Translations under genes and position numbers: made by a program
Source of the DNA: a virus
Lineage: Duplodnaviria; Caudoviricetes
Reading direction: 5' to 3' (one strand)
DNA: 53,112 bases
IMG/VR virus record: IMGVR_UViG_3300032312_001042
Location: 1 to 53,112 of that record
Part shown: positions 17,001 to 35,006 of the stretch, piece by piece
How the letters are laid out: every line of letters begins with the position of its first letter
Position numbering within the stretch: the first letter of the stretch is position 1
The notes under the pieces: generated by a model
The model's database searches: none
Seen by the model: the letters and a program-made list of their open reading frames with translations, nothing else
What the model was told of the DNA's origin: nothing

Positions 17001-17158
17001 TGGCTATACCAGCTTTAGTTATATCGACATTGTGTTATTTAATTACATGTATTAGCTGTTTTGTTCAAAAAGATCATCCACACGGTATGATGTGGGCTGG
17101 ATATGTTTTTGCTAATATAGGATTATTATGGTATGAGTATTCAAAATTGGGATCATAG
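17000..17158 (+). CDS. Small two-TM membrane protein (52 aa, not in ORF track)
   Basis: MAIPALVISTLCYLITCISCF...WAGYVFANIGLLW; TAATG coupling. Confidence 0.65.
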   Translation: MAIPALVISTLCYLITCISCFVQKDHPHGMMWAGYVFANIGLLWYEYSKLGS

Positions 17159-17567
17159 ATTTTTAGTTCTAGCCAAACTAATAGGATCATGGTCAAAAGA
17201 CCCGTCCACTCAAGTTGGGGCTGTTATTGTTGATGAGAATAATCGTATTGTATCTGTGGGATACAACGGATTCCCTCAAAATATAAAAGATGATGATAGA
17301 CTTTATGATAGAGAAACAAAATACAAAATTGTTGTTCACGGAGAAATTAACGCTATATTATTTGCTAACAGATCAATAACTGGATGTACATTATATACAT
17401 TTCCATTTGAACCGTGTCCAAGGTGTGCTGGGTTAATAATTCAGTCTGGTATTAAGAGAGTAGTTTCTTTGGTAAATAATATTGATAGGTGGGAAGAAGA
17501 CTTTAAGGTAACGAGGCAACTTTTTAAAGAAGCAAACATTGCAATGGACTACTACGATGGAGTATAA
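17133..17567 (+). CDS. dCMP deaminase (ComEB-like)
   Basis: SKDPSTQVGAVIV, GYNG, HGEINA, PCPRC. Confidence 0.92.
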   Translation: MSIQNWDHRFLVLAKLIGSWSKDPSTQVGAVIVDENNRIVSVGYNGFPQNIKDDDRLYDRETKYKIVVHGEINAILFANRSITGCTLYTFPFEPCPRCAGLIIQSGIKRVVSLVNNIDRWEEDFKVTRQLFKEANIAMDYYDGV

Positions 17568-18755: not shown

Positions 18756-19214
18756 ATGAATCAACAGCCATTTGAGGGATTGACTCAAATCCTAGCTTCT
18801 GTTTTTATTTTATACACACTGTACAACTTTGTTAAATACAGTCAGAACCCAAACGCAAAAGGCTTTAGTGATATATATGAGTTGGGATATGTATATGAAA
18901 AAACTCCAACAAGCGCTGTTGCAATTAATGCTACTGTAAGTTTGCCAAAGATCAAAAAAGCACAGCCACAGAAGCAAACGAGAAAGCCAGATGTAATAAA
19001 GCCCACTCACGAAAAGAAAGAAAAGACAACGGAGGTAGTTAAAAAAACTCCAAAGCGTTATAATCAACTTCAACAAGATTGTTATGACGCTCTAATCTCT
19101 CTTGGTATGAAAAAGAAGGAAGCGACGTTTGTTGTGAATTCTACATTTAATAAGACTGATGTTTCGACCGTACAAGATTTTCTAAAAATTGCACTAATAA
19201 GACCTAACAAATGA
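18756..19214 (+). CDS. Membrane-anchored protein with RuvA domain III-like C-terminus
   Basis: N-terminal TM; Lys/Pro/Thr linker; DCYDALISLGMKKKEA...VQDFLKIAL; AAGGAG RBS. Confidence 0.6.
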   Translation: MNQQPFEGLTQILASVFILYTLYNFVKYSQNPNAKGFSDIYELGYVYEKTPTSAVAINATVSLPKIKKAQPQKQTRKPDVIKPTHEKKEKTTEVVKKTPKRYNQLQQDCYDALISLGMKKKEATFVVNSTFNKTDVSTVQDFLKIALIRPNK

Positions 19215-19621
19215 ATATACTTGAACAATCTTACAATATTTCATTAGGGTTACTTCCAAAAGCCAAACAAGCAAGAAATACTAAGAATAAATTTTTCCAT
19301 TTTGCTTTTGCTTATAAAAAGAACAAATTGTTGGCAATAGGACAAAACAATCCTGAAAAAACTCATACTCAAGCATTGATGCTCTCTAAAAGGTTTTTAA
19401 ATGAGGAAACTGATTATCCCTACCTACACGCAGAAACAGATGTTATATCGAAACTGTGGGGAAAATATTATATAGATAACGCAGTTAAATTAGTGATAGT
19501 TAGACTTAATAAGCGTGGAGCATTAAGATGTAGCAAACCATGTGAAAGATGCGACGAAATTATTAAATCTTTAGGTATAAATAAATTATGGTGGAGTATA
19601 GATAATGGATTTGACAAATAA
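19211..19621 (+). CDS. Zn-dependent cytidine/deoxycytidylate deaminase-fold protein
   Basis: HFAF, GQN, HAE, SKPCERC. Confidence 0.8.
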   Translation: MNILEQSYNISLGLLPKAKQARNTKNKFFHFAFAYKKNKLLAIGQNNPEKTHTQALMLSKRFLNEETDYPYLHAETDVISKLWGKYYIDNAVKLVIVRLNKRGALRCSKPCERCDEIIKSLGINKLWWSIDNGFDK

Positions 19622-22022: not shown

Positions 22023-22496
22023 ATGAAAAACATTGTTGCAAATATAGATTTTGAAAAGGCGATTAAAAATAAAGACTATGTTAAGATCATGAATAAGGCG
22101 TCTCAGAGATTTAGAAACCAATTAGATGCAGATATTATTAATTCATGCCAACTTACAGCATTATGGAAAGCTTTACAAGCATTCGATAGCTCAAAGAATG
22201 TCAAGTTTACCACTTTCTTATATAAAGGAGTCTTTATAGAGTGCATGAAGGAAATAAAGATATACAATAAGGGTAAGCGGTGTGCTGGTAAATTACACGA
22301 TAATATACCTCAGAGTTTCTATAATCAAGAAATATTAGAATTAAAGGATGAGTTAGGTAGTGAGGAAGATTACCAATTATTAGTAGATAGATTTATTTCA
22401 AGAATGACTATTAACGAAATAGCGATATCTAAAAAAACTAATAGGGAGAAGATAAGAAAAAGGATAAATAGGATAGTAGAAAAATTGGTACAATAG
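22023..22496 (+). CDS. Small sigma70-family sigma factor
   Basis: Region-2-like ALWKALQAFDSSKNVKFTTFLY; region-4-like MTINEIA...REKIR. Confidence 0.7.
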   Translation: MKNIVANIDFEKAIKNKDYVKIMNKASQRFRNQLDADIINSCQLTALWKALQAFDSSKNVKFTTFLYKGVFIECMKEIKIYNKGKRCAGKLHDNIPQSFYNQEILELKDELGSEEDYQLLVDRFISRMTINEIAISKKTNREKIRKRINRIVEKLVQ

Positions 22497-22507: not shown

Positions 22508-22573
22508 AACTAGGAGTCTGGACTTTGCAAGGAAAATAGGAATATTTTATATTTGAACTATGGAGAAAATATT

Positions 22574-23215
22574 ATGGCTACAACAAAAGCAAAGTCTGCA
22601 AACGCAGTTAAAAACAATGGCGGTACGGTTGTAAATGGTGGAACAGTAGAGGCTGGCACACCAATTACAAACAATGTAAACCTAAATGAACTTACTCAGT
22701 CAAATGATTATGGCTCAAAAGTAGTGCAAAATAGCGCAGTAAGTGACGGATTTTCAGATCCAGATGGCGTAACAAAGGCAAAAAGCAGTGGAACTTTTGC
22801 TTACTTTCCAAACGCAAGAACTGGCGAAAGAAATTTCCTATTGAAGACTGCTGGTGAAGCATCTTCAAAGATAAATAATGTAGCAACTGATCTATTAAAT
22901 ATTCCCGGCTCACAATACGCAGGAGTAAGCCGCGACAGTATTCATAAGACTGTTAGTACAAGAAGAATTGGCGAATACGCAAGTACTAAGTTTGATCTTT
23001 TAGCTCCACCCTCAAGCGGAGTTGTCCCAGGAAGAACACGCGGAGCAAACTCTGGCGCTAATTCAAACTTTGTTCAGAAGAATGGTTCTACAGCAGCAGT
23101 AGACGATGCTGCAAGTCCAACAAGGGCTGTTCCCGGCGAACTTACTTACCATTTTGGCGGTTTAGCTAAACCATTTAGCACAACCTACAAGGCTAGTGAT
23201 TCATACGAATCCTAA
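22574..23215 (+). CDS. Putative virion structural protein
   Basis: Ala/Gly/Ser/Thr-rich; PTRAVPGELTY; GGAG RBS; own terminator. Confidence 0.55.
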   Translation: MATTKAKSANAVKNNGGTVVNGGTVEAGTPITNNVNLNELTQSNDYGSKVVQNSAVSDGFSDPDGVTKAKSSGTFAYFPNARTGERNFLLKTAGEASSKINNVATDLLNIPGSQYAGVSRDSIHKTVSTRRIGEYASTKFDLLAPPSSGVVPGRTRGANSGANSNFVQKNGSTAAVDDAASPTRAVPGELTYHFGGLAKPFSTTYKASDSYES

Positions 23216-23270: not shown

Positions 23271-23852
23271 ATGCTTAATTTAAATCCAGAATATATAACT
23301 ATTTTTTTGACCATTGTTGGCGGTTCATGCACTTTTGGTAGTCTAGTATGGATAAAATTTCTAAAGCCAGTACTAAAACTAGTTAAAAATCAAGATTTTT
23401 TTACAGAATCAGTAAAAGAATTGCGCAAAGAATTAATGACAAATGGCGGAAACAGCTTAAAAGATTCTATAATAGAGCTTAAAAAAATATGCACTATAAT
23501 AGATAAAAGACAAAGAGTTATAGAGCAAAGAACAAGAGCATCGATGCACTATAATGAGATAGCATTGTTTGAAACAGATCATGATGGAAGATTAGTATGG
23601 AATAATATTCATCTTCACAAGTTTATAGACGAAAGTAATCTATTCCTAGAAGGATACGATTGGATAAATATAGTTAATGAAGAAGAAAGAAGTGATGTAT
23701 TAAGTGAATTTAAATCTTGTATAGAAATGAATAGAAGATTTAATAAAGTAACACATAACTCCGATGGCAAGCCGCTAAGATTAATTGGTTATCCATATAA
23801 AATTAGCGATGAAGAGCATGGGGGATTTTTAGTCAGCGTATCCGAAACATAA
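23271..23852 (+). CDS. Membrane protein with coiled coil and C-terminal PAS domain
   Basis: TM about aa 9-31; NGGNSLKD; LFETDHDGRLVWNN...LEGYDWINIVNEEERSDVLSEF; AGGAG RBS. Confidence 0.75.
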   Translation: MLNLNPEYITIFLTIVGGSCTFGSLVWIKFLKPVLKLVKNQDFFTESVKELRKELMTNGGNSLKDSIIELKKICTIIDKRQRVIEQRTRASMHYNEIALFETDHDGRLVWNNIHLHKFIDESNLFLEGYDWINIVNEEERSDVLSEFKSCIEMNRRFNKVTHNSDGKPLRLIGYPYKISDEEHGGFLVSVSET

Positions 23853-23863
23853 GAGGTATTAAA

Positions 23864-24070
23864 ATGGAACAATCATCAAGATTTTCTTTAAATGTAAACG
23901 ATTTAGTCAATCTAGGAAAAAACGCATTACTAGTTGGTGCTGGATCACTTTTAACATATGTATTAGAAAATATCAACACTATAGATTGGGGTTCAACTGG
24001 AGTATTACTCGTTCCATTTGTAACACTAGTTCTAGACAGTGTTGTTAAGTGGTTGAAAGGCCCAAGATGA
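23864..24070 (+). CDS. Holin-like small two-TM protein
   Basis: 68 aa, two hydrophobic segments, basic C-terminus; ATGA-coupled to peptidase. Confidence 0.55.
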   Translation: MEQSSRFSLNVNDLVNLGKNALLVGAGSLLTYVLENINTIDWGSTGVLLVPFVTLVLDSVVKWLKGPR

Positions 24071-24993
24071 CTGTAGAATTTAATAAACCTATTGATCTTC
24101 TAAAAGCTTATCGTGAAGGTTTTATGGGATCGTGGTGCGATCCTAAAGACACTGATAAGTTATTAGGAGAGCTTCCACATCCACTGTTTGGTGCCGCTGC
24201 ACACGACCTGTATGGAAGTGGAAAGGGTAAACTAGCACTACCATTTAAAAACGTGTTAACATTTGATCCTAACTTTGGACCATCTGAAAAACAGGTTCAG
24301 GGCGACTGTGTTAGTCATGCAACACGAAACGCTGTAGATGTCACACGTTCGTGTGAAATTATTGGTGGTGAAAGAGAAGAATTTGTTGCTAGGGGAGCCG
24401 TAGAAGCTATTTATGGCTCTAGAGGTCATGGTGGCGAAGGTATGTCATGCTCAGTAGCAGCAAGGTTTGTAAATAAAGTGGGTGGTTTATTAATTCGAAA
24501 ACAGTATGGTGATATAGACTTATCCACTTATTCTGGCGTGGGTGGCAAGTGGGGAAGAAGTGGTGTTCCAGAATCATTACTAAAAGAAGCAAAGAAAAAT
24601 CCAGTAAAAACTATATCATTAATTAACACAATAGAACAGGCAAGAGATGCTATTGCTAATGGTTATGGTATTAGTGTGTGTTCTATGTCTGGATTTTCTA
24701 GTAGACGCGATAAAAATGGTATAGCGTCTAGAAGTGGCTCTTGGGCGCACGCGATGGCTTGGGTTGGTATGGACGATACTCATGAAATATATAACGAAAC
24801 ATTATTTTTGGTACAAAATAGCTGGGGTATCTGGAATAATGGCCCAAAACGTCATGACCAACCAGAAGGTAGTTTTTGGATTAGGGAAAAAGATGCAGCG
24901 GAAATGCTTTCTGGAAATGGATCTTGGGTATTTAGTGATGTAGATGGATTCCCACCAAGAAAAGTAAACTGGACAATAAATACAGTCTTTTAA
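24067..24993 (+). CDS. Papain-like (C1) cysteine peptidase
   Basis: QVQGDCVSH, WAHAM, QNSWG. Confidence 0.88.
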   Translation: MTVEFNKPIDLLKAYREGFMGSWCDPKDTDKLLGELPHPLFGAAAHDLYGSGKGKLALPFKNVLTFDPNFGPSEKQVQGDCVSHATRNAVDVTRSCEIIGGEREEFVARGAVEAIYGSRGHGGEGMSCSVAARFVNKVGGLLIRKQYGDIDLSTYSGVGGKWGRSGVPESLLKEAKKNPVKTISLINTIEQARDAIANGYGISVCSMSGFSSRRDKNGIASRSGSWAHAMAWVGMDDTHEIYNETLFLVQNSWGIWNNGPKRHDQPEGSFWIREKDAAEMLSGNGSWVFSDVDGFPPRKVNWTINTVF

Positions 24994-26487: not shown

Positions 26488-26847
26488 ATGGCTAATGTCA
26501 ATCTTAAAAGTCTCACCACTGTATTAGGTGAAAACGCTAGTATAGCGGATATTCCCACAAGTGCTAGTGGTATAGTCACCTGTTCCAGTAATCAAGTTTT
26601 AAAAATCAACAGTCTTTATGTTGCTAATATTGACGGTACTAATAGTGCTAATATAACCGCTGATCTACACAATGGCAGTGCCGTATTATCACACTTGGTA
26701 AGAAATACGACAATTGGTGCTGGTGGGTCAATCAATATTATAACAGCTGGATCACCAGTATATATTACAGAAGGTCAGACGGTAAGATTGTCAGCTAGCA
26801 CAAGCGGCGATCTTAGTGGATTTGTTAGTTATGAGAGGATAAGTTAA
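26488..26847 (+). CDS. Putative virion beta-protein
   Basis: AAGGAG RBS; KINSLYVANIDG...SYERIS. Confidence 0.65.
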   Translation: MANVNLKSLTTVLGENASIADIPTSASGIVTCSSNQVLKINSLYVANIDGTNSANITADLHNGSAVLSHLVRNTTIGAGGSINIITAGSPVYITEGQTVRLSASTSGDLSGFVSYERIS

Positions 26848-27080
26848 TGAATAGAGCTGGCAAAAATTTTGTTCATCCCAAAGAACCTACAAAAACTACT
26901 AACCTAGATGGCTTATGGGGCTTGAATGAAATAAATAACCATATCAAGAATAATAATTGGCCTGACTTAAATATACCTGTAAATGAATATAATGTAGGAT
27001 TAGCTTATATAAATTATCTAGCTCAAGGATTAAAACCAAATTATAACATTGGCGCTATTTACATAAATATAATATCTTAA
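26847..27080 (+). CDS. Small fibre-associated protein, paralog A
   Basis: GxW..NEI....NWP; two NxGxxYIN repeats. Confidence 0.7.
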   Translation: MNRAGKNFVHPKEPTKTTNLDGLWGLNEINNHIKNNNWPDLNIPVNEYNVGLAYINYLAQGLKPNYNIGAIYINIIS

Positions 27081-27092
27081 GGGTTAAATCAA

Positions 27093-27374
27093 ATGATAAG
27101 ATCTGGAAGAGGCTTTGGTTGGATTAAAGATCCAACAAAAACTACAAATTTAAGCGGGAGATGGGAAATAAATGAGATTAATAATCATATAATTAATGGC
27201 AATTGGCCAAGGTTAAATGAATCACCAAACGAATACAATGTAGGGGCAGCTTATATCAACTATATATCTCAGGGTTTAAAACCAAGATATGATATTGGTG
27301 CTACATATCTAAATGTAATCCACTCTGATCCAAAACTAAATATAGGCACTGCCTATCTAAATATTTTATACTAA
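27093..27374 (+). CDS. Small fibre-associated protein, paralog B
   Basis: Clear paralog of 26847 (PTKTTNL, NEINNHI, NEYNVG, QGLKP); three repeats. Confidence 0.7.
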   Translation: MIRSGRGFGWIKDPTKTTNLSGRWEINEINNHIINGNWPRLNESPNEYNVGAAYINYISQGLKPRYDIGATYLNVIHSDPKLNIGTAYLNILY

Positions 27375-27386
27375 AGGAGAATTAAT

Positions 27387-28775
27387 ATGTCAGTATTAGA
27401 AATTGAAGGTTTTGAAAAGTATAGTAGCTTGAATGATATATTATCTCACTATAAGTATGCAACACACCAAACCCCTGTTATAATATCATCAGCAGACTCA
27501 ACGGGCGTTACCCCAAGAAATAACTTATCTTGTCTAAAAATGACAAGCACACAAACCAATATATTAGGCGGCGATGTAAATTTTAGAATGATTAGATTTC
27601 CTAAGTTTGCTATGCAAGAAATACCGGCACATACAAATGGAGTTTTGGGATTTTCATATTACTCCTATGTTCCAACGGGTGGTTCATTTGCTCCCTTTAC
27701 TCCAATAGCAGCTGTTTGTGATCCAATAGGAAGGCCGCACTTTTTTATCTGTGTTAATGGAAATAGACAGGTAGAATTAAGAAGATGGAATACTAGTGCT
27801 AGTATGGGAACAAACGCAGGATTGTCAGCAGCTAATATTACTTGGGACGTTGACCCAAATAACTATTCCAGAGCAATAGTATACGGTATGTATTGCAGCG
27901 ATGGCACTGTAAATATAAAAGAACATTTTTTTAGCGCACCTTCTTCTGTAAGTCATTGTAACGGGACATTTAATATGACTTATGCTGGTAACGCAATTAA
28001 TACAAGTGCTTTTACATTAGTTCATACATCAACAGGAACTTTAAATGCTTCATCTTGGAATTATATTGAAGTAGAATATGTAATCTCGTCCTCTTCAACT
28101 GGTAGCTTTAAAGTTAGAATAAATAACTTACCATCAGATAATAGTAATACTATTGATAGTCAAGTTAGTAATGTTGCAACTACAACACAATCTAATGGAA
28201 ATGTTGGGCAAGTAGCTTTTGGAACTTTTTGGGCGCACAGAGCAGACGGTTTGGCTTCTTTTTATAGCGATAAAACCACAAGTACAACAGTTCATTGGAT
28301 AACATACTTTGACGATATATATCTGTTGCGCAAAGATTCTACGTTACCAAATAATTTCTTAGGAAGTGTTAGTTGCCTGAAGGGCGATTTTGATACGCTG
28401 GTTAGCAACACAGCGTCTAGTGGAAATCTAGCAAGTATAAACGACGCTACAATATCGGCAAGTGGTCATATGACTAATAGAGTAGTAATAAATAATTACA
28501 ATCAAAATATACAAGTAAGATGTTCTGGTCTTGCGGTTGCTGACTCAACAAATGTAAAATTTGTACAGCCAGTAGTTTTAGGCTATGATCTAAGTAGTGT
28601 TCCTTTAAAAGTAAGAGCAACACTCAATAGCGCTTCATCTGACAGCGAAATGGTTTTAGAAGGTAATACCATAACTGGAAATGCTAAACTTGGACCAGCT
28701 TTTGTTGTTGATCCAAGCAATAACAATTGGACAGGAAGCGGCGTGAAAAACACAATATTTCTTTTCGGAGCATAA
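27387..28775 (+). CDS. Putative virion/receptor-binding beta-sandwich (LamG/ConA-like) protein, paralog 1
   Basis: EGFE, RPHFFIC, WNYIE, FDDIY, FLGSVSC; AAGGAG RBS. Confidence 0.65.
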   Translation: MSVLEIEGFEKYSSLNDILSHYKYATHQTPVIISSADSTGVTPRNNLSCLKMTSTQTNILGGDVNFRMIRFPKFAMQEIPAHTNGVLGFSYYSYVPTGGSFAPFTPIAAVCDPIGRPHFFICVNGNRQVELRRWNTSASMGTNAGLSAANITWDVDPNNYSRAIVYGMYCSDGTVNIKEHFFSAPSSVSHCNGTFNMTYAGNAINTSAFTLVHTSTGTLNASSWNYIEVEYVISSSSTGSFKVRINNLPSDNSNTIDSQVSNVATTTQSNGNVGQVAFGTFWAHRADGLASFYSDKTTSTTVHWITYFDDIYLLRKDSTLPNNFLGSVSCLKGDFDTLVSNTASSGNLASINDATISASGHMTNRVVINNYNQNIQVRCSGLAVADSTNVKFVQPVVLGYDLSSVPLKVRATLNSASSDSEMVLEGNTITGNAKLGPAFVVDPSNNNWTGSGVKNTIFLFGA

Positions 28776-31736: not shown

Positions 31737-33899
31737 ATGTCACTTATTTTTTTTGAGGGTTTTGATAATTGCTCTAGCTTCAAAGATGTTAGTGGAATTT
31801 TTAAAATTGCAAGTAATATGCTAGATGATCCTAGAACTATTAACCCAGTTCTTTCAAGTGGCTACGTGGAATCTATAAGTGCTAAAAATAGTGGAAATAT
31901 GATAGTTCTAGAATCTTCTTATAGTTTACCATCTACTAGCGGTCTGGCTACAATAGCTAATAATCAATCTATTAATATAACTGGATCTGGCAATTCAGCA
32001 TCTAAATTTACTGTTGCGGCTAATTTTTCCTATACGAATTTTCCTATATTTAAAATTAACAAAAATGGTACTTTTAATATTGAGGCAGGAGATTTTAATT
32101 ATACTGACGCAGAAGGTGATGCTCAAGGTCAACCTATTATTAATATTACTAGAACAAGAAATGGATCATCAGTAGATACACCAATTTATAGAAACGATAG
32201 TTCTTATTATGGTGGTTATACTAAATTTATTGGAAGTGTTCCAGTGAAAAGTGGTGATCTTATATCAATAAAGGAAAAAAATCTAAGAGTTGTAAGACTT
32301 AATCCAAACGATACAAACTCTTTAGCATTTACTGCTTGGGCGGTAGAAAGTACTGGAGTATTTTTTCCATCAATAGGTATAGACTTAGGAAAAAATTTGA
32401 CACAAGGAGTAGTTGGATTTTCATACGCTCCAATATTACCACCAAGCGGTAATTTTGGAAACGGTACAGACAATTTTACACCAATTGCGTGTTTAACAGA
32501 TGATCAGTATAGGCCACACTTCTTTATTTGTAATACTAGCACTGGGCAATTACAGTTAAGAAAATTTAATTCGTCAAATTTTAGTAATGATCTTCAATCA
32601 TTCTATAATTATAAAATTGGTTCTGCTAATACAGACGGCGTTCAGCAAACTTATCCAAGGTTTTTAAAATCTACAACAGATCCAACATTAACAATTGGTG
32701 GAAATGGAACAAACTTAACACTAATAGCAGAAAGCACAGTAGAAAAAAATACACTCGTAAATAATTTTTGGAATTATATAGAGTTAAAATTTGATATGAA
32801 TACACAAGACGCGGCATTGAGAATAAATAGAAAAAATACATCAACAAAAAATGACTTAGAATTTAATGGACAAAATATTAGTAACTTAGGATTATTAAAT
32901 AATGCTTTGACTATTGCTAGCGGATCTGCTTCTGGAAATGGTACATATACATCCCCATACATTACTGCAAATCCAAGCGTTGGAGTTTTTAGAGTAAATC
33001 AAGATGGTGTAATCACACTTAGATTTGTTGGAACTTGGAGAACCGCTACTTCTGGTCCACCTATAAACAGCTTTGCAAATATATATAAAAATGGCACAAT
33101 CATACAAAATATACCAAAACCTCCAGGTTCTATATTTTTTCCTGGTTTTTATCTTTCATCATCTGATAGTTTTTACTCCTTTTCAACATCTTCTGGAGAT
33201 GTATTTGGGATTGATTTCAACTTGGGAACAGCTGGAACTGCACAGGCGGGTGATGCTAGTCAATCAGCATTTTTCTCCCCAGTTGCAGCTTTATCAGATC
33301 AATTAGATAAAACTGTAAGATATTTGGTATTAGGTACAATGTGGGGTCAGGATATTAACTCAGCTTCTCCAGCTGCTCACCTTGGATGGAAAACCTTATT
33401 AGATGATATTTATGTAGTAGATGCATCTGGTTCAATTTTACCCAATGATTTTTTGGGATCTGTATCTTGCAGGAGAATACCATTCAATCAACAGGTAAGA
33501 AATACTACATCTAGTGGAAATTTAGCTAGCGTTTCAGATGTATTATCTGGTGCTAGTGGATTTGCTACACCTAGTGGTAACGGAACATTGTTTTTTGATG
33601 CAGTAAATCAAGAATTTAATGTCAAATCTAGTGGCTTCTCTGTAAATAATAATAACATAATAGGACTACAAATTAATATGAACGGCTTTTCTCTGAATAC
33701 AGAGGATTACATTGGTGTTGGATTAGAAATAGAAAACGGCTCTGGATCATATGATTTTTCACCAGTTGTATTATCAAGAAATAGCACTACTGGAGGATAT
33801 GCGCGTGGGCAACTTTATACAACAAATCCCAGCGGACTCCCTTGGACAGAAGAAGCTATAAGAAATACTACTTTTAAACTAAAATCATTGAGTGAATAA
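31737..33899 (+). CDS. Putative virion/receptor-binding protein, paralog 2 with two inserted beta-domains
   Basis: Shares EGFD, GVVGFSY, FTPIA, RPHFFIC, WNYIE, DDIY, LPNDFLGSVSC, SSGNLAS with 27387. Confidence 0.7.
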   Translation: MSLIFFEGFDNCSSFKDVSGIFKIASNMLDDPRTINPVLSSGYVESISAKNSGNMIVLESSYSLPSTSGLATIANNQSINITGSGNSASKFTVAANFSYTNFPIFKINKNGTFNIEAGDFNYTDAEGDAQGQPIINITRTRNGSSVDTPIYRNDSSYYGGYTKFIGSVPVKSGDLISIKEKNLRVVRLNPNDTNSLAFTAWAVESTGVFFPSIGIDLGKNLTQGVVGFSYAPILPPSGNFGNGTDNFTPIACLTDDQYRPHFFICNTSTGQLQLRKFNSSNFSNDLQSFYNYKIGSANTDGVQQTYPRFLKSTTDPTLTIGGNGTNLTLIAESTVEKNTLVNNFWNYIELKFDMNTQDAALRINRKNTSTKNDLEFNGQNISNLGLLNNALTIASGSASGNGTYTSPYITANPSVGVFRVNQDGVITLRFVGTWRTATSGPPINSFANIYKNGTIIQNIPKPPGSIFFPGFYLSSSDSFYSFSTSSGDVFGIDFNLGTAGTAQAGDASQSAFFSPVAALSDQLDKTVRYLVLGTMWGQDINSASPAAHLGWKTLLDDIYVVDASGSILPNDFLGSVSCRRIPFNQQVRNTTSSGNLASVSDVLSGASGFATPSGNGTLFFDAVNQEFNVKSSGFSVNNNNIIGLQINMNGFSLNTEDYIGVGLEIENGSGSYDFSPVVLSRNSTTGGYARGQLYTTNPSGLPWTEEAIRNTTFKLKSLSE

Positions 33900-33910
33900 A
33901 GGGAACCTAT

Positions 33911-34297
33911 ATGAAAAATAAAAACTATGTCATGTATTTTGTATTAATTACCAGTTTATTATTATTGCAATATAATTTTTTTGTATCTAATAATAATTGC
34001 TGTACTTTAGAAACTAAAGATATAGCAAATATGTATGAGAATTACATAGAAGATTGGAAAAATAAATCTAAAAGAGCTTTTGATGAAGCAGAAGCAAAAA
34101 TTTTTACTACTCCAAAACCTCCAGTAGTAATCATACCAATGGAAGATCCAGACCCAGCAAAGTGCATATGCAAAGGTACGGGTATAATAACTCATGGTGA
34201 TGGTCACAAAACGCCGTGCCAATATCATGGAGTAAATAAGCAATTACTTAAAGACAAAGAATTAAAATACAAACAACTTATAATTATTGGAGAATAA
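33911..34297 (+). CDS. Membrane-anchored protein with Cys motif
   Basis: N-terminal TM; Pro-rich linker; CICKGTG..GDGHKTPC. Confidence 0.7.
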   Translation: MKNKNYVMYFVLITSLLLLQYNFFVSNNNCCTLETKDIANMYENYIEDWKNKSKRAFDEAEAKIFTTPKPPVVIIPMEDPDPAKCICKGTGIITHGDGHKTPCQYHGVNKQLLKDKELKYKQLIIIGE

Positions 34298-34549
34298 ATG
34301 AACATTGACAACATCTTAAGAACCATAGCTATTTTAGCAGCTGTAGTTCTAATACTTTCAAATGTAAATTTTGAATACATTTATCAATTTTTACTACAAA
34401 AATTTCAAAGTAAGACTAATAATTTTATTGAAATAGTTAACTTGTGGCATATCTTAAGAGAAAAGTGCGATCAAGCAAATCTAAAAGACGCTGTTGTAAA
34501 GTTAGATGAAACATTTCCATTGTTAAATAACGAGGAAGACAATGTATAA
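34298..34549 (+). CDS. Small membrane protein
   Basis: GGAG RBS; N-terminal TM. Confidence 0.7.
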   Translation: MNIDNILRTIAILAAVVLILSNVNFEYIYQFLLQKFQSKTNNFIEIVNLWHILREKCDQANLKDAVVKLDETFPLLNNEEDNV

Positions 34550-35006
34550 AAATATTATTGCCATAGCACTTATTCTATATGCTGTATTTGGCAGTGGACT
34601 AGTTGACCTATTAAAAAATATTAAACCTATTCCACAACCACAACCAGCATCAATACTAAATATTGATAAACCAACCAATGACGTAATACTTAGAGTAGAA
34701 AGATTTTCTAATCTAATTACAGATCCAACAGATAGAGCTAAAATAGCTATATTTAATTATGATTTTGCTAATAGAATAAAAACTTGGAATACAAATAACC
34801 AACAAGTCAATGATGTATATACATTAGCTGGTAAGATATTTTTCCAAGATTCTTTAGTTAATAAATACAGTGGTTTATCTACAGAGATTACTGATTTGCT
34901 AAAAGAATTATTGACTGACGATAATCATATTTTATCTGAAGAAGAAAAAAATAAAGTAAATCAATACTTTGCTGGCATAGCTTGGGTTTTAATACAAAGG
35001 AAATAA
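34542..35006 (+). CDS. Membrane-anchored protein
   Basis: N-terminal TM; PIPQPQP linker; helical domain. Confidence 0.7.
   Translation: MYKNIIAIALILYAVFGSGLVDLLKNIKPIPQPQPASILNIDKPTNDVILRVERFSNLITDPTDRAKIAIFNYDFANRIKTWNTNNQQVNDVYTLAGKIFFQDSLVNKYSGLSTEITDLLKELLTDDNHILSEEEKNKVNQYFAGIAWVLIQRK

Follow-up and report, generated by a model that had tools for sequence, protein, structure and literature searches.

To our knowledge, all well-studied tailed phages of walled bacteria leave their hosts by means of a peptidoglycan hydrolase, and the canonical holin-endolysin(-spanin) cassettes are exemplified by S-R-Rz/Rz1 of phage lambda and by the class II holin S21 of phage 21. In T4 lysis inhibition the holin T works together with the antiholins RI and RIII, of which RI senses superinfection in the periplasm and RIII acts on the cytoplasmic side. 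Here we describe three consecutive genes, for a PAS-domain membrane protein of 193 amino acids (aa), a 68-aa two-helix membrane protein and a papain-type cysteine peptidase, that occupy positions 23,271 to 24,993 of a 53,112-nucleotide (nt) stretch of Caudoviricetes DNA (IMG/VR virus record IMGVR_UViG_3300032312_001042; the whole stretch is called the window below). A sequence-only reading of this DNA, made without database searches, had proposed a sensor-gated lysis triad at this position. We confirm the three open reading frames (ORFs) and their operon-like packing, and we give about even chances to the view that they belong to a lysis or envelope-opening module, a view supported by a stalk motif shared with proteins from actinophage lysis cassettes, by how the genes are built and packed, by the membrane-protein company of the peptidase and by the failure to recognise any muralytic enzyme.

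The locus resembles canonical cassettes in that a small two-helix membrane protein is encoded 5′ of, and translationally coupled to, a hydrolase without signal peptide, and in that the module includes additional proteins that are exported or single-pass. It differs from them in that the hydrolase is a C1A peptidase rather than a muramidase, transglycosylase, amidase or known peptidoglycan peptidase, in that about 9 kb of tail-fibre-like genes split the module, and in that no lipoprotein o-spanin was identified. The likeness to T4 lysis inhibition is one of concept only, namely an accessory protein that signals to holin triggering, and no relation in sequence or fold is claimed; unlike in RI, the putative sensor would be a cytoplasmic PAS domain. 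Clan-CA cysteine peptidases have been turned on the cell wall by phages in other forms, as in CHAP and NlpC/P60 domains and in the papain-superfamily peptidase domains N4 (RipA-like) and N5 (C39-like) of the mycobacteriophage endolysin LysA, as one study describes (PMC3314691). These belong to other families, however, and take the form of small domains joined to wall-binding or glycosidase domains, none of them C1A zymogen-like; in the phage clade considered here, the NLPC_P60 and CHAP profiles gave no match above their cut-offs. A 2023 survey reports that xylellain-type short bacterial C1A peptidases have been acquired by Caudoviricetes, and names no function alongside that statement (PMC10380794). 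Our search of the literature on phage papain-like cysteine proteases, lysis cassettes and holins found no C1A-based lysis module.

The peptidase and its two membrane-protein neighbours

Judged by its modelled fold and its active site, the product of the third gene is a xylellain-type C1A cysteine peptidase, for which proteolytic activity and zymogen activation are predicted. The Pfam family Peptidase_C1 (PF00112) is matched with an expectation value (E) of 0.051 and 14.1 bits against a cut-off of 20.7 bits, and a precomputed match to the same family exists for 1 of the 120 homologues listed. The catalytic sites are Cys81 (nt 24307-24309), His228 (nt 24748-24750), Gln76 and Asn251-Ser-Trp; across 51 peptidase sequences, with identities down to 32%, C81, H228 and W253 are invariant, and Q76, N251 and S252 are each present in at least 90%. 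A profile built from these 51 members retrieved caricain from the PDB with E 1.4e-6 and with the motifs aligned, and xylellain with E 0.0036. The AlphaFold2 model of the peptidase (predicted local distance difference test, pLDDT, 92.1; predicted template modelling score, pTM, 0.92) gave 239 Foldseek matches at E ≤ 0.001, with xylellain 3OIS first at 3e-10, and the best 50 structures in a VIA-align comparison are all C1A enzymes with Z scores of 17-21.4, xylellain aligning at Z 21.4 with a root-mean-square deviation of 2.9 over 232 residues. The papain-type assignment made from the letters alone is thus borne out by the invariant catalytic residues and by the matches to caricain and xylellain.

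The phage enzyme shares with xylellain of Xylella fastidiosa the papain fold and the Gln-Cys-His-Asn(-Ser-Trp) active site, and differs from it in being phage-encoded, in lacking a signal peptide and in being encoded among small membrane-protein genes; its identity to solved structures is 10-19%, and its score lies below the Pfam cut-off. Because solved zymogens align with the model from residue 6-7 and mature enzymes only from about 50-53, the N-terminal ~50 residues appear pro-segment-like, and it is the C-terminal part of the pro-peptide of procathepsins B, K and L, propapain and procaricain that aligns with this short N-terminal extension. Hydropathy analysis found neither a hydrophobic segment nor a signal peptide in the chain, in agreement with the sequence-only reading. 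The family is large: a library clustered at 50% identity yielded 1,509 representatives at E ≤ 0.001, and many of its members (P0121, P0129, P0137, P0140, P0154 and others) reach 640-1,040 aa because of inteins, as in the peptidase at L016:8641-10593, whose intein carries Intein_splicing, LAGLIDADG_3 (endonuclease) and Hint domains.

The 193-aa protein has a single hydrophobic segment at residues 9-27 (nt 23295-23351), flanked by a charge of -1 before and +3 after the transmembrane (TM) helix, which by the positive-inside rule suggests an N-out/C-in topology and hence a cytoplasmic PAS domain. Its AlphaFold2 model, made from 23 sequences (pLDDT 84.5), consists of two long helices (6-57 and 63-93), between which the NGGNS motif makes a break, and of an alpha/beta domain that spans 98-192. 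The ELxxNGGxSLKD motif of this helical stalk covers residues 54-65 (nt 23430-23465), and the PAS domain about residues 95-193 (nt 23553-23849), where strands 98-102, 108-111, 157-162, 168-177 and 183-192, with helices between them, form a five-stranded antiparallel PAS fold. All Foldseek matches listed from the PDB are PAS/LOV-type domains (best E 1.4e-4), and in Pfam searches with the 23 family members PAS_9 was matched by 17 (best E 1.9e-7), PAS by 10 and PAS_4 by 7; the window's own copy has no PAS match in Pfam at E ≤ 1. The PAS fold that had been read from the sequence is therefore well founded, and since the chain ends with this domain the protein has no output domain. Residues S149, C150, R155, W110 and W131 are among those invariant in the PAS domain, and there is no invariant His.

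The 68-aa protein is holin-like by architecture only, as its hydropathy and charge suggest. Its second predicted helix (46-64) is clearly hydrophobic, at 1.85 over 19 residues, the loop between the helices is acidic (charge -2) and the C-terminus basic (charge +2). In the ESM Atlas the clusters that come next after the one of this protein bear the automatic name 'Holin family protein' (scores 0.94 and 0.93), which we treat as a lead only.

The three genes are closely packed: 11 nt separate the first from the second, and the peptidase ATG at 24067 overlaps the TGA of the 68-aa gene as ATGA. Of 29 related loci, 27 have a gap of -20 to +15 nt between the first and second genes, and 26 have one of -8 to +18 nt between the second gene and the third.

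The stalk motif in actinophage lysis cassettes

The statement, in the sequence-only reading, that NGGxSLxD membrane proteins occur in phage lysis cassettes proved correct. When 711 ORF segments were searched with a profile built from the N-terminal halves of the 193-aa family, four actinophage proteins were matched with E-values of 2e-6 to 5e-6, in every case by way of the motif helix: gp52 of Streptomyces phage mu1/6, P1312_040 of Thermobifida phage P1312, gp22 of Arthrobacter phage Sonali and BIM BV-113_00590 of Glutamicibacter phage BIM BV-113. Three of these four adjoin annotated endolysins. The mu1/6 gene lies directly 3′ of those for the endolysin gp50 and the holin gp51, and the motif ORFs of P1312 and Sonali overlap an amidase or lysin A gene at its start; the neighbours of BIM BV-113_00590 are all hypothetical or unannotated. 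Among PHROGs, phrog_9869 (function unknown) is matched by 12 of the 23 PAS-protein members with a best E of 2e-5 (0.048 for the window protein), and phrog_15431, labelled 'holin', by 2 of the 23.

The actinophage lysis-cassette proteins (those of mu1/6, P1312 and Sonali) and the 193-aa protein have in common an N-terminal TM helix followed by a helix with the motif E-L/V-x-P/T-N-x-G-x-S-L/I-K/R-D-A/S-V/I, and the similarity is limited to about 30-40 residues. These actinophage proteins differ in being 91-153 aa long, in having no PAS domain and in lying beside conventional endolysins, whereas the neighbours of the 193-aa protein are a holin-like gene and a C1A peptidase. They are annotated as 'unknown', as 'hypothetical' and in one case as 'sensory protein kinase CreC'; this last label, on P1312_040 (L095:2833-3276), a 147-aa single-pass motif protein whose gene overlaps the amidase gene start, is probably wrong. 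Searched more widely, the N-terminal-half profile of the 193-aa family found 64 proteins, and the named ones among these are all metagenomic 'hypothetical' or 'PAS domain' entries, with no named cultured relative.

On these grounds a sequence of events can be sketched. The module would be transcribed late, by read-through of a terminator-like hairpin that lies 3′ of the upstream gene up220. The 68-aa two-helix protein would make the membrane lesion. The peptidase would be made in the cytoplasm without export signal and in latent form, as the position of the pro-segment seen in the fold suggests, and it would reach its envelope substrate only through that lesion, which it would need for leaving the cytoplasm because it has no signal peptide. 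Its partners in the envelope might be the exported proteins, Cys-rich and single-pass, whose genes lie at 33911-35006. The 193-aa protein would be an accessory of the holin-like protein: the family defined by its anchor and stalk motif occurs in the lysis cassettes of cultured actinophages, and the cytoplasmic PAS domain, gained in this clade, could conceivably feed an intracellular input into the timing of lysis. We regard such PAS-gated timing as doubtful, and the full scheme, in which the clade lyses without a muralytic enzyme as the holin-like protein frees a latent C1A protease at a moment set by a ligand- or redox-responsive PAS sensor, is in our estimate similarly unlikely.

Evidence for and against a lysis role

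Gene order, the 68-aa protein itself, the conservation of the peptidase and the insensitivity of the family searches all supply points that weigh against a lysis role, and these are set out here beside the alternatives that they favour. Synteny was read from both sides, over 80 loci of the peptidase and 80 of the PAS protein, the counts on the PAS side being out of 76-79 loci. On the peptidase side, 29 of the 80 loci have the order of sigma-like gene, 220-aa gene, PAS protein, 68-aa protein and peptidase; 48, which make up a sister clade, have a glycosyltransferase gene, the peptidase and then four small membrane-protein genes (Cys-rich, 58-aa two-helix, 98-aa and 150-aa), with no PAS protein; and 3 are cut or unclear. 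In the sister clade the start of the peptidase gene overlaps the end of the glycosyltransferase gene, and the sigma-like and 220-aa genes lie ~4 kb downstream of the peptidase, followed in most loci that reach far enough by a gene for a 100-116-aa TM-coiled-coil protein and, in the three loci read, by ribonucleotide reductase. The PAS domain is a lineage-specific addition, and in the sister clade the peptidase occurs without it.

The 58-aa protein has weak PHROG holin matches (E 0.0026-0.0088), and it (48/80 loci) and the 68-aa family (30/80) are never found in the same locus. Profile-profile comparison with hhalign gave no homology either between the 68-aa family and the 58-aa holin-like protein (probability 0.3%) or between the PAS protein and the TM-coiled-coil protein of the sister clade (0.2-0.3% over the two comparisons); homology, expected from a GG motif seen by eye, was dropped as a claim, and because profile-profile homology is lacking the 'replacement' of the PAS and 68-aa proteins in the sister clade is positional only. 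Two of the sister-clade loci (L032:6055-7338 and L021:6877-8274) also contain a gene of ~430-465 codons with a twin-arginine-like signal; its product resembles what we take to be the DUF1501 sulfatase-like family typical of Planctomycetes, which could hint at the host.

The 48 loci in which the peptidase gene starts within the end of a glycosyltransferase gene, without PAS and 68-aa genes, favour an alternative that we hold to be possible, namely that the peptidase is a cytoplasmic processing or takeover protease (for assembly, anti-defence or host shut-off) rather than a lysin, with the real endolysin encoded elsewhere and unrecognised; the adjacent membrane genes could even so be lysis genes, or something else. 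The missing export signal fits this alternative, as does the general character of C1A enzymes, which are protein and peptide hydrolases; we know of none that cuts peptidoglycan. The identity of the peptidase is 63-93%, far above that of its neighbours, with a mean column identity of 76% in 26 sequences, and the inteins that could be placed sit immediately before Cys81 or immediately after His228, some proteins having both. Such high conservation, together with inteins at catalytic residues, is usual for core enzymes more than for endolysins. The family moreover spans 28-69% G+C per 2-kb window and includes contigs of Pirellulales metagenome-assembled genomes (MAGs). What speaks against a takeover protease is that in every arrangement seen the peptidase is embedded in, or adjoins, a group of small proteins that are membrane-bound or exported, and that its pro-segment-like N-terminus suggests an activity withheld until some later event.

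Read from the PAS side, the 68-aa gene is directly downstream in 77 of 79 loci, and a homologue of up220 lies directly 5′ of the PAS-protein gene in 73 of the 76 loci with room for it. The peptidase is adjacent in 55 of 78, or 63 of 78 when interrupted arrangements are included: in three further loci the peptidase match starts 1.2-1.4 kb later, probably owing to an intein, and in five others a single membrane-protein gene intervenes and the Cys-rich gene comes after the peptidase; in L162 and L174 a gene of 172-173 aa, related by eye to the 154-aa protein listed below, is found between the 68-aa-type gene and the peptidase. In fifteen of 78 loci no peptidase is encoded within 4 kb. The five of these that were read have ribonucleotide reductase after the 68-aa gene, six such records, only 10-63% complete, showed no peptidase in the part present, and a 105-kb record, 63% complete, has the upstream gene order of the window and no peptidase. 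The triad is therefore not a fixed unit, and to this extent the sequence-only reading is not supported: adjacency of the peptidase is frequent and not obligatory.

That the PAS and 68-aa proteins form a constant pair tied to up220, with the peptidase as a dispensable neighbour, is what would be expected if the two were a membrane pair with a role other than lysis, such as superinfection exclusion, membrane energetics or signalling, attached to up220 and not to the peptidase. Genes of the rIIA/rIIB type in the window show that this phage has other membrane-directed functions, and the 68-aa protein matches no holin family: the window copy has no Pfam or PHROG match, none of the 21 members of its family matches a holin family in Pfam or PHROGs, and the weak PHROG holin matches given by a mixed alignment were set aside, as they stem from the 58-aa protein of the sister clade. 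Of the earlier description of the 68-aa product as a holin-like protein with two TM helices, the second helix is clear, the first (20-34) is weak and reaches the threshold only with a 15-residue window (1.59), and membership in a known holin family is not supported. We nevertheless rate a non-lysis pair as quite unlikely, considering that the stalk motif lies beside endolysins in three of four cultured actinophages, that the 68-aa protein, in its size, charge pattern and probable topology, would suit the class II holins (two TM helices, N-in/C-in, charged C-terminus), and that the nearest Atlas clusters carry the holin name noted above.

The features of the locus are collected in Table 1. The highly conserved gene up220, which has no Pfam or PHROG match, is separated from the PAS gene by a hairpin of -26.7 kcal/mol (z -4.82; none of 200 shuffles as stable). 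Before the three genes, where a terminator had been noted, there is thus a strong terminator-like stem-loop, and a G+C-rich hairpin recurs, by eye, at the equivalent position in all 28 related intergenic regions folded, with differing stem sequences and in several cases a T run, but the U-tract of the window copy is weak, which is why a consensus terminator scan does not list it.

Table 1. Positions of the genes and of the stem-loop discussed, numbered from the first letter of the window
Feature	Position	Strand	Basis
Sigma-factor-like gene	22023-22496		weak Pfam/PHROG matches
up220, 220 aa, unknown function	22553..23215	+	ORF 3′ of the sigma-factor-like gene; conserved left neighbour of the PAS protein
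G+C-rich terminator-like stem-loop, UUCG loop	23229..23252	+	fold; between up220 and the triad
PAS membrane protein, 193 aa	23271..23852	+	ORF, model, hydropathy
Holin-like (architecture only) protein, 68 aa	23864..24070	+	ORF, hydropathy
Xylellain-type C1A peptidase (predicted)	24067..24993 (308 aa; alternative start 24049 = 314 aa)	+	ORF, model
128-aa protein, N-terminal hydrophobic segment, Cys-rich CxCxGTG...HGDGH...C motif	33911..34297	+	tblastn E 2e-12 to L032:10924-11358
83-aa protein, N-terminal TM helix	34298..34549	+	positional match to the sister-clade 98-aa membrane protein
154-aa protein, N-terminal TM helix	34542..35006	+	tblastn E 1.6e-24, homologue of the sister-clade 150-aa membrane protein

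In the window the peptidase is followed by tail-fibre-like genes and not by membrane proteins, a further point on the negative side. The counterparts of the sister-clade membrane proteins are encoded ~9 kb downstream of the peptidase, past those genes: the 128-aa protein is a homologue of the product of the gene directly 3′ of the sister-clade peptidase, tblastn with the window copy of the 83-aa protein gave nothing at E < 0.5, and the relatives of this protein in L002, L005 and L016 are 31-32% identical to the 98-aa protein. The module is thus dispersed, its parts re-shuffled and yet recurrently together, with the PAS and 68-aa genes as the tightest pair and the peptidase, the Cys-rich protein and the single-pass proteins as a second group. 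Among the intervening genes, those at 26847-27080 (77 aa) and 27093-27374 (93 aa) are adjacent and evident paralogues with a common N-terminal stretch (...P/DPTKTTNL.G.W..NEINNHI.N.NWP...), and the products of 27387-28775 (462 aa) and 31737-33899 (720 aa), which share similar starts (MS.(L/I)..EGF...) and C-terminal ...LPN(N/D)FLGSVSC... stretches, are probably paralogous fibre or receptor-binding proteins standing between the two halves of the membrane module.

Beyond the phage records, the peptidase was found at 12 loci in genome assemblies, three of them on Pirellulales MAG contigs (L089:3400-8400, L090:3400-8400 and L091:4200-8000), where the peptidases are 45-48% identical and the windows have 57-69% G+C per 2 kb (about 66% in two). 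Its company there consists of small membrane proteins, a lipoprotein-like Cys-rich protein, a PHB-esterase-type hydrolase and a TM-coiled-coil protein, and Pfam and PHROG searches of these island genes gave only the PHB-esterase match plus weak matches of unknown function. By eye, the flanks in L089 and L090 are gatC-like and ketoacyl-synthase-like genes; a serine-recombinase-like gene lies near the peptidase copy in L091. In Pirellulales the module may exist in a cellular or domesticated form. The peptidase keeps membrane-protein company in very different genomes, which does not by itself show what the group does.

The search for a conventional lysin bears on the takeover alternative as well as on a lysis role. 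Pfam searches of six-frame translations at E ≤ 0.01 covered 13 muralytic or peptidoglycan-peptidase families, with no match in the window and none at or above cut-off in relatives 55-88% complete, so that the earlier statement that no endolysin is recognisable in the window stands, with the proviso that the controls for two of the thirteen families, PF05838 and PF00182, were silent, as were those for PF03420 and PF07068. A set of six relatives, 94-100% complete and including two that have terminal repeats, yielded no match to Phage_lysozyme, Amidase_2 or SLT, which counts against an unrecognised endolysin elsewhere. An NLPC_P60 match in relative G001 (E 0.005, 13.8 bits) was rejected as spurious, being sub-threshold and in a tail-fibre-like gene. 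The same six-frame method failed to find Phage_capsid and Gp23 in the relatives, although a capsid protein is present, the product of L101:14094-15098 in G001 matching PDB 6wkk at E 2.9e-7. Because the method is insensitive enough in this clade to miss its capsid protein, which favours the takeover alternative, the missing endolysin is suggestive and not strong evidence. The missed capsid protein also calls for caution over every statement that a family is absent from this clade.

Among the outcomes that the sequence-only reading named as undoing it is that the peptidase is a virion maturation protease; that it is the capsid (prohead) maturation protease we consider highly improbable. This would account for the failure to find the S77 and S78 prohead-protease families of Pfam in the relatives, a search in which the control for S77 stayed silent. 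In the closest large relative, however, the head genes lie at 8-15 kb, in the order terminase, 668-aa ORF, 487-aa ORF, 149-aa ORF and capsid protein, far from the peptidase, which falls within 108952-129875 of the same record. The 487-aa ORF occupies the usual protease/scaffold position, and the closest Atlas cluster that bears a name is Peptidase_S77 (score 0.93, with 150 features in common), which we count as a weak lead; sequence searches of the PDB with this ORF gave no match.

The source phage and what the module would mean

The window is estimated to hold 35% of its virus genome, has a G+C content of ~33% and carries nearly all its long ORFs on the + strand. It codes for rIIA/rIIB-like proteins, an IMPDH/GMP-reductase-type enzyme, a class I ribonucleotide reductase, a RecA/UvsX-like recombinase, DnaB, a primase and a Pol III alpha-type polymerase. 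Upstream of the glycosyltransferase, the ORFs at 17133-17567 and 19211-19621 show by eye deaminase-like Cys/His motifs (HGEINA...PCxxC and HAE...CxxC) and would be nucleotide-metabolism genes. Relatives with the same genes reach 145-174 kb; four are estimated to be 100% complete, two of these with terminal repeats. The clade appears to consist of uncultured phages with genomes of about 145-175 kb, and is called uncultured because tblastn against 50,697 phage records gave no match with the peptidase, with its distant member P0228 or with the 193-aa protein. Sequencing runs that contain at least one third of the stretch are labelled metagenome or freshwater metagenome, and the clade is abundant in lakes and seas and counts over 1,200 protein clusters at 90% identity.

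The shared stalk motif provides a handle on a family for which we found no study of its role, and does so in the tractable cultured phages mu1/6 and Sonali. If the lysis reading is true, a papain-type protease in an abundant lake and sea clade would widen the known range of lysis effectors and would suggest that the host envelope offers a protein target open to attack by such a protease. In that case, the PAS domain on a lysis-cassette protein would offer a directly testable case of a phage timing lysis by the internal state of its host.

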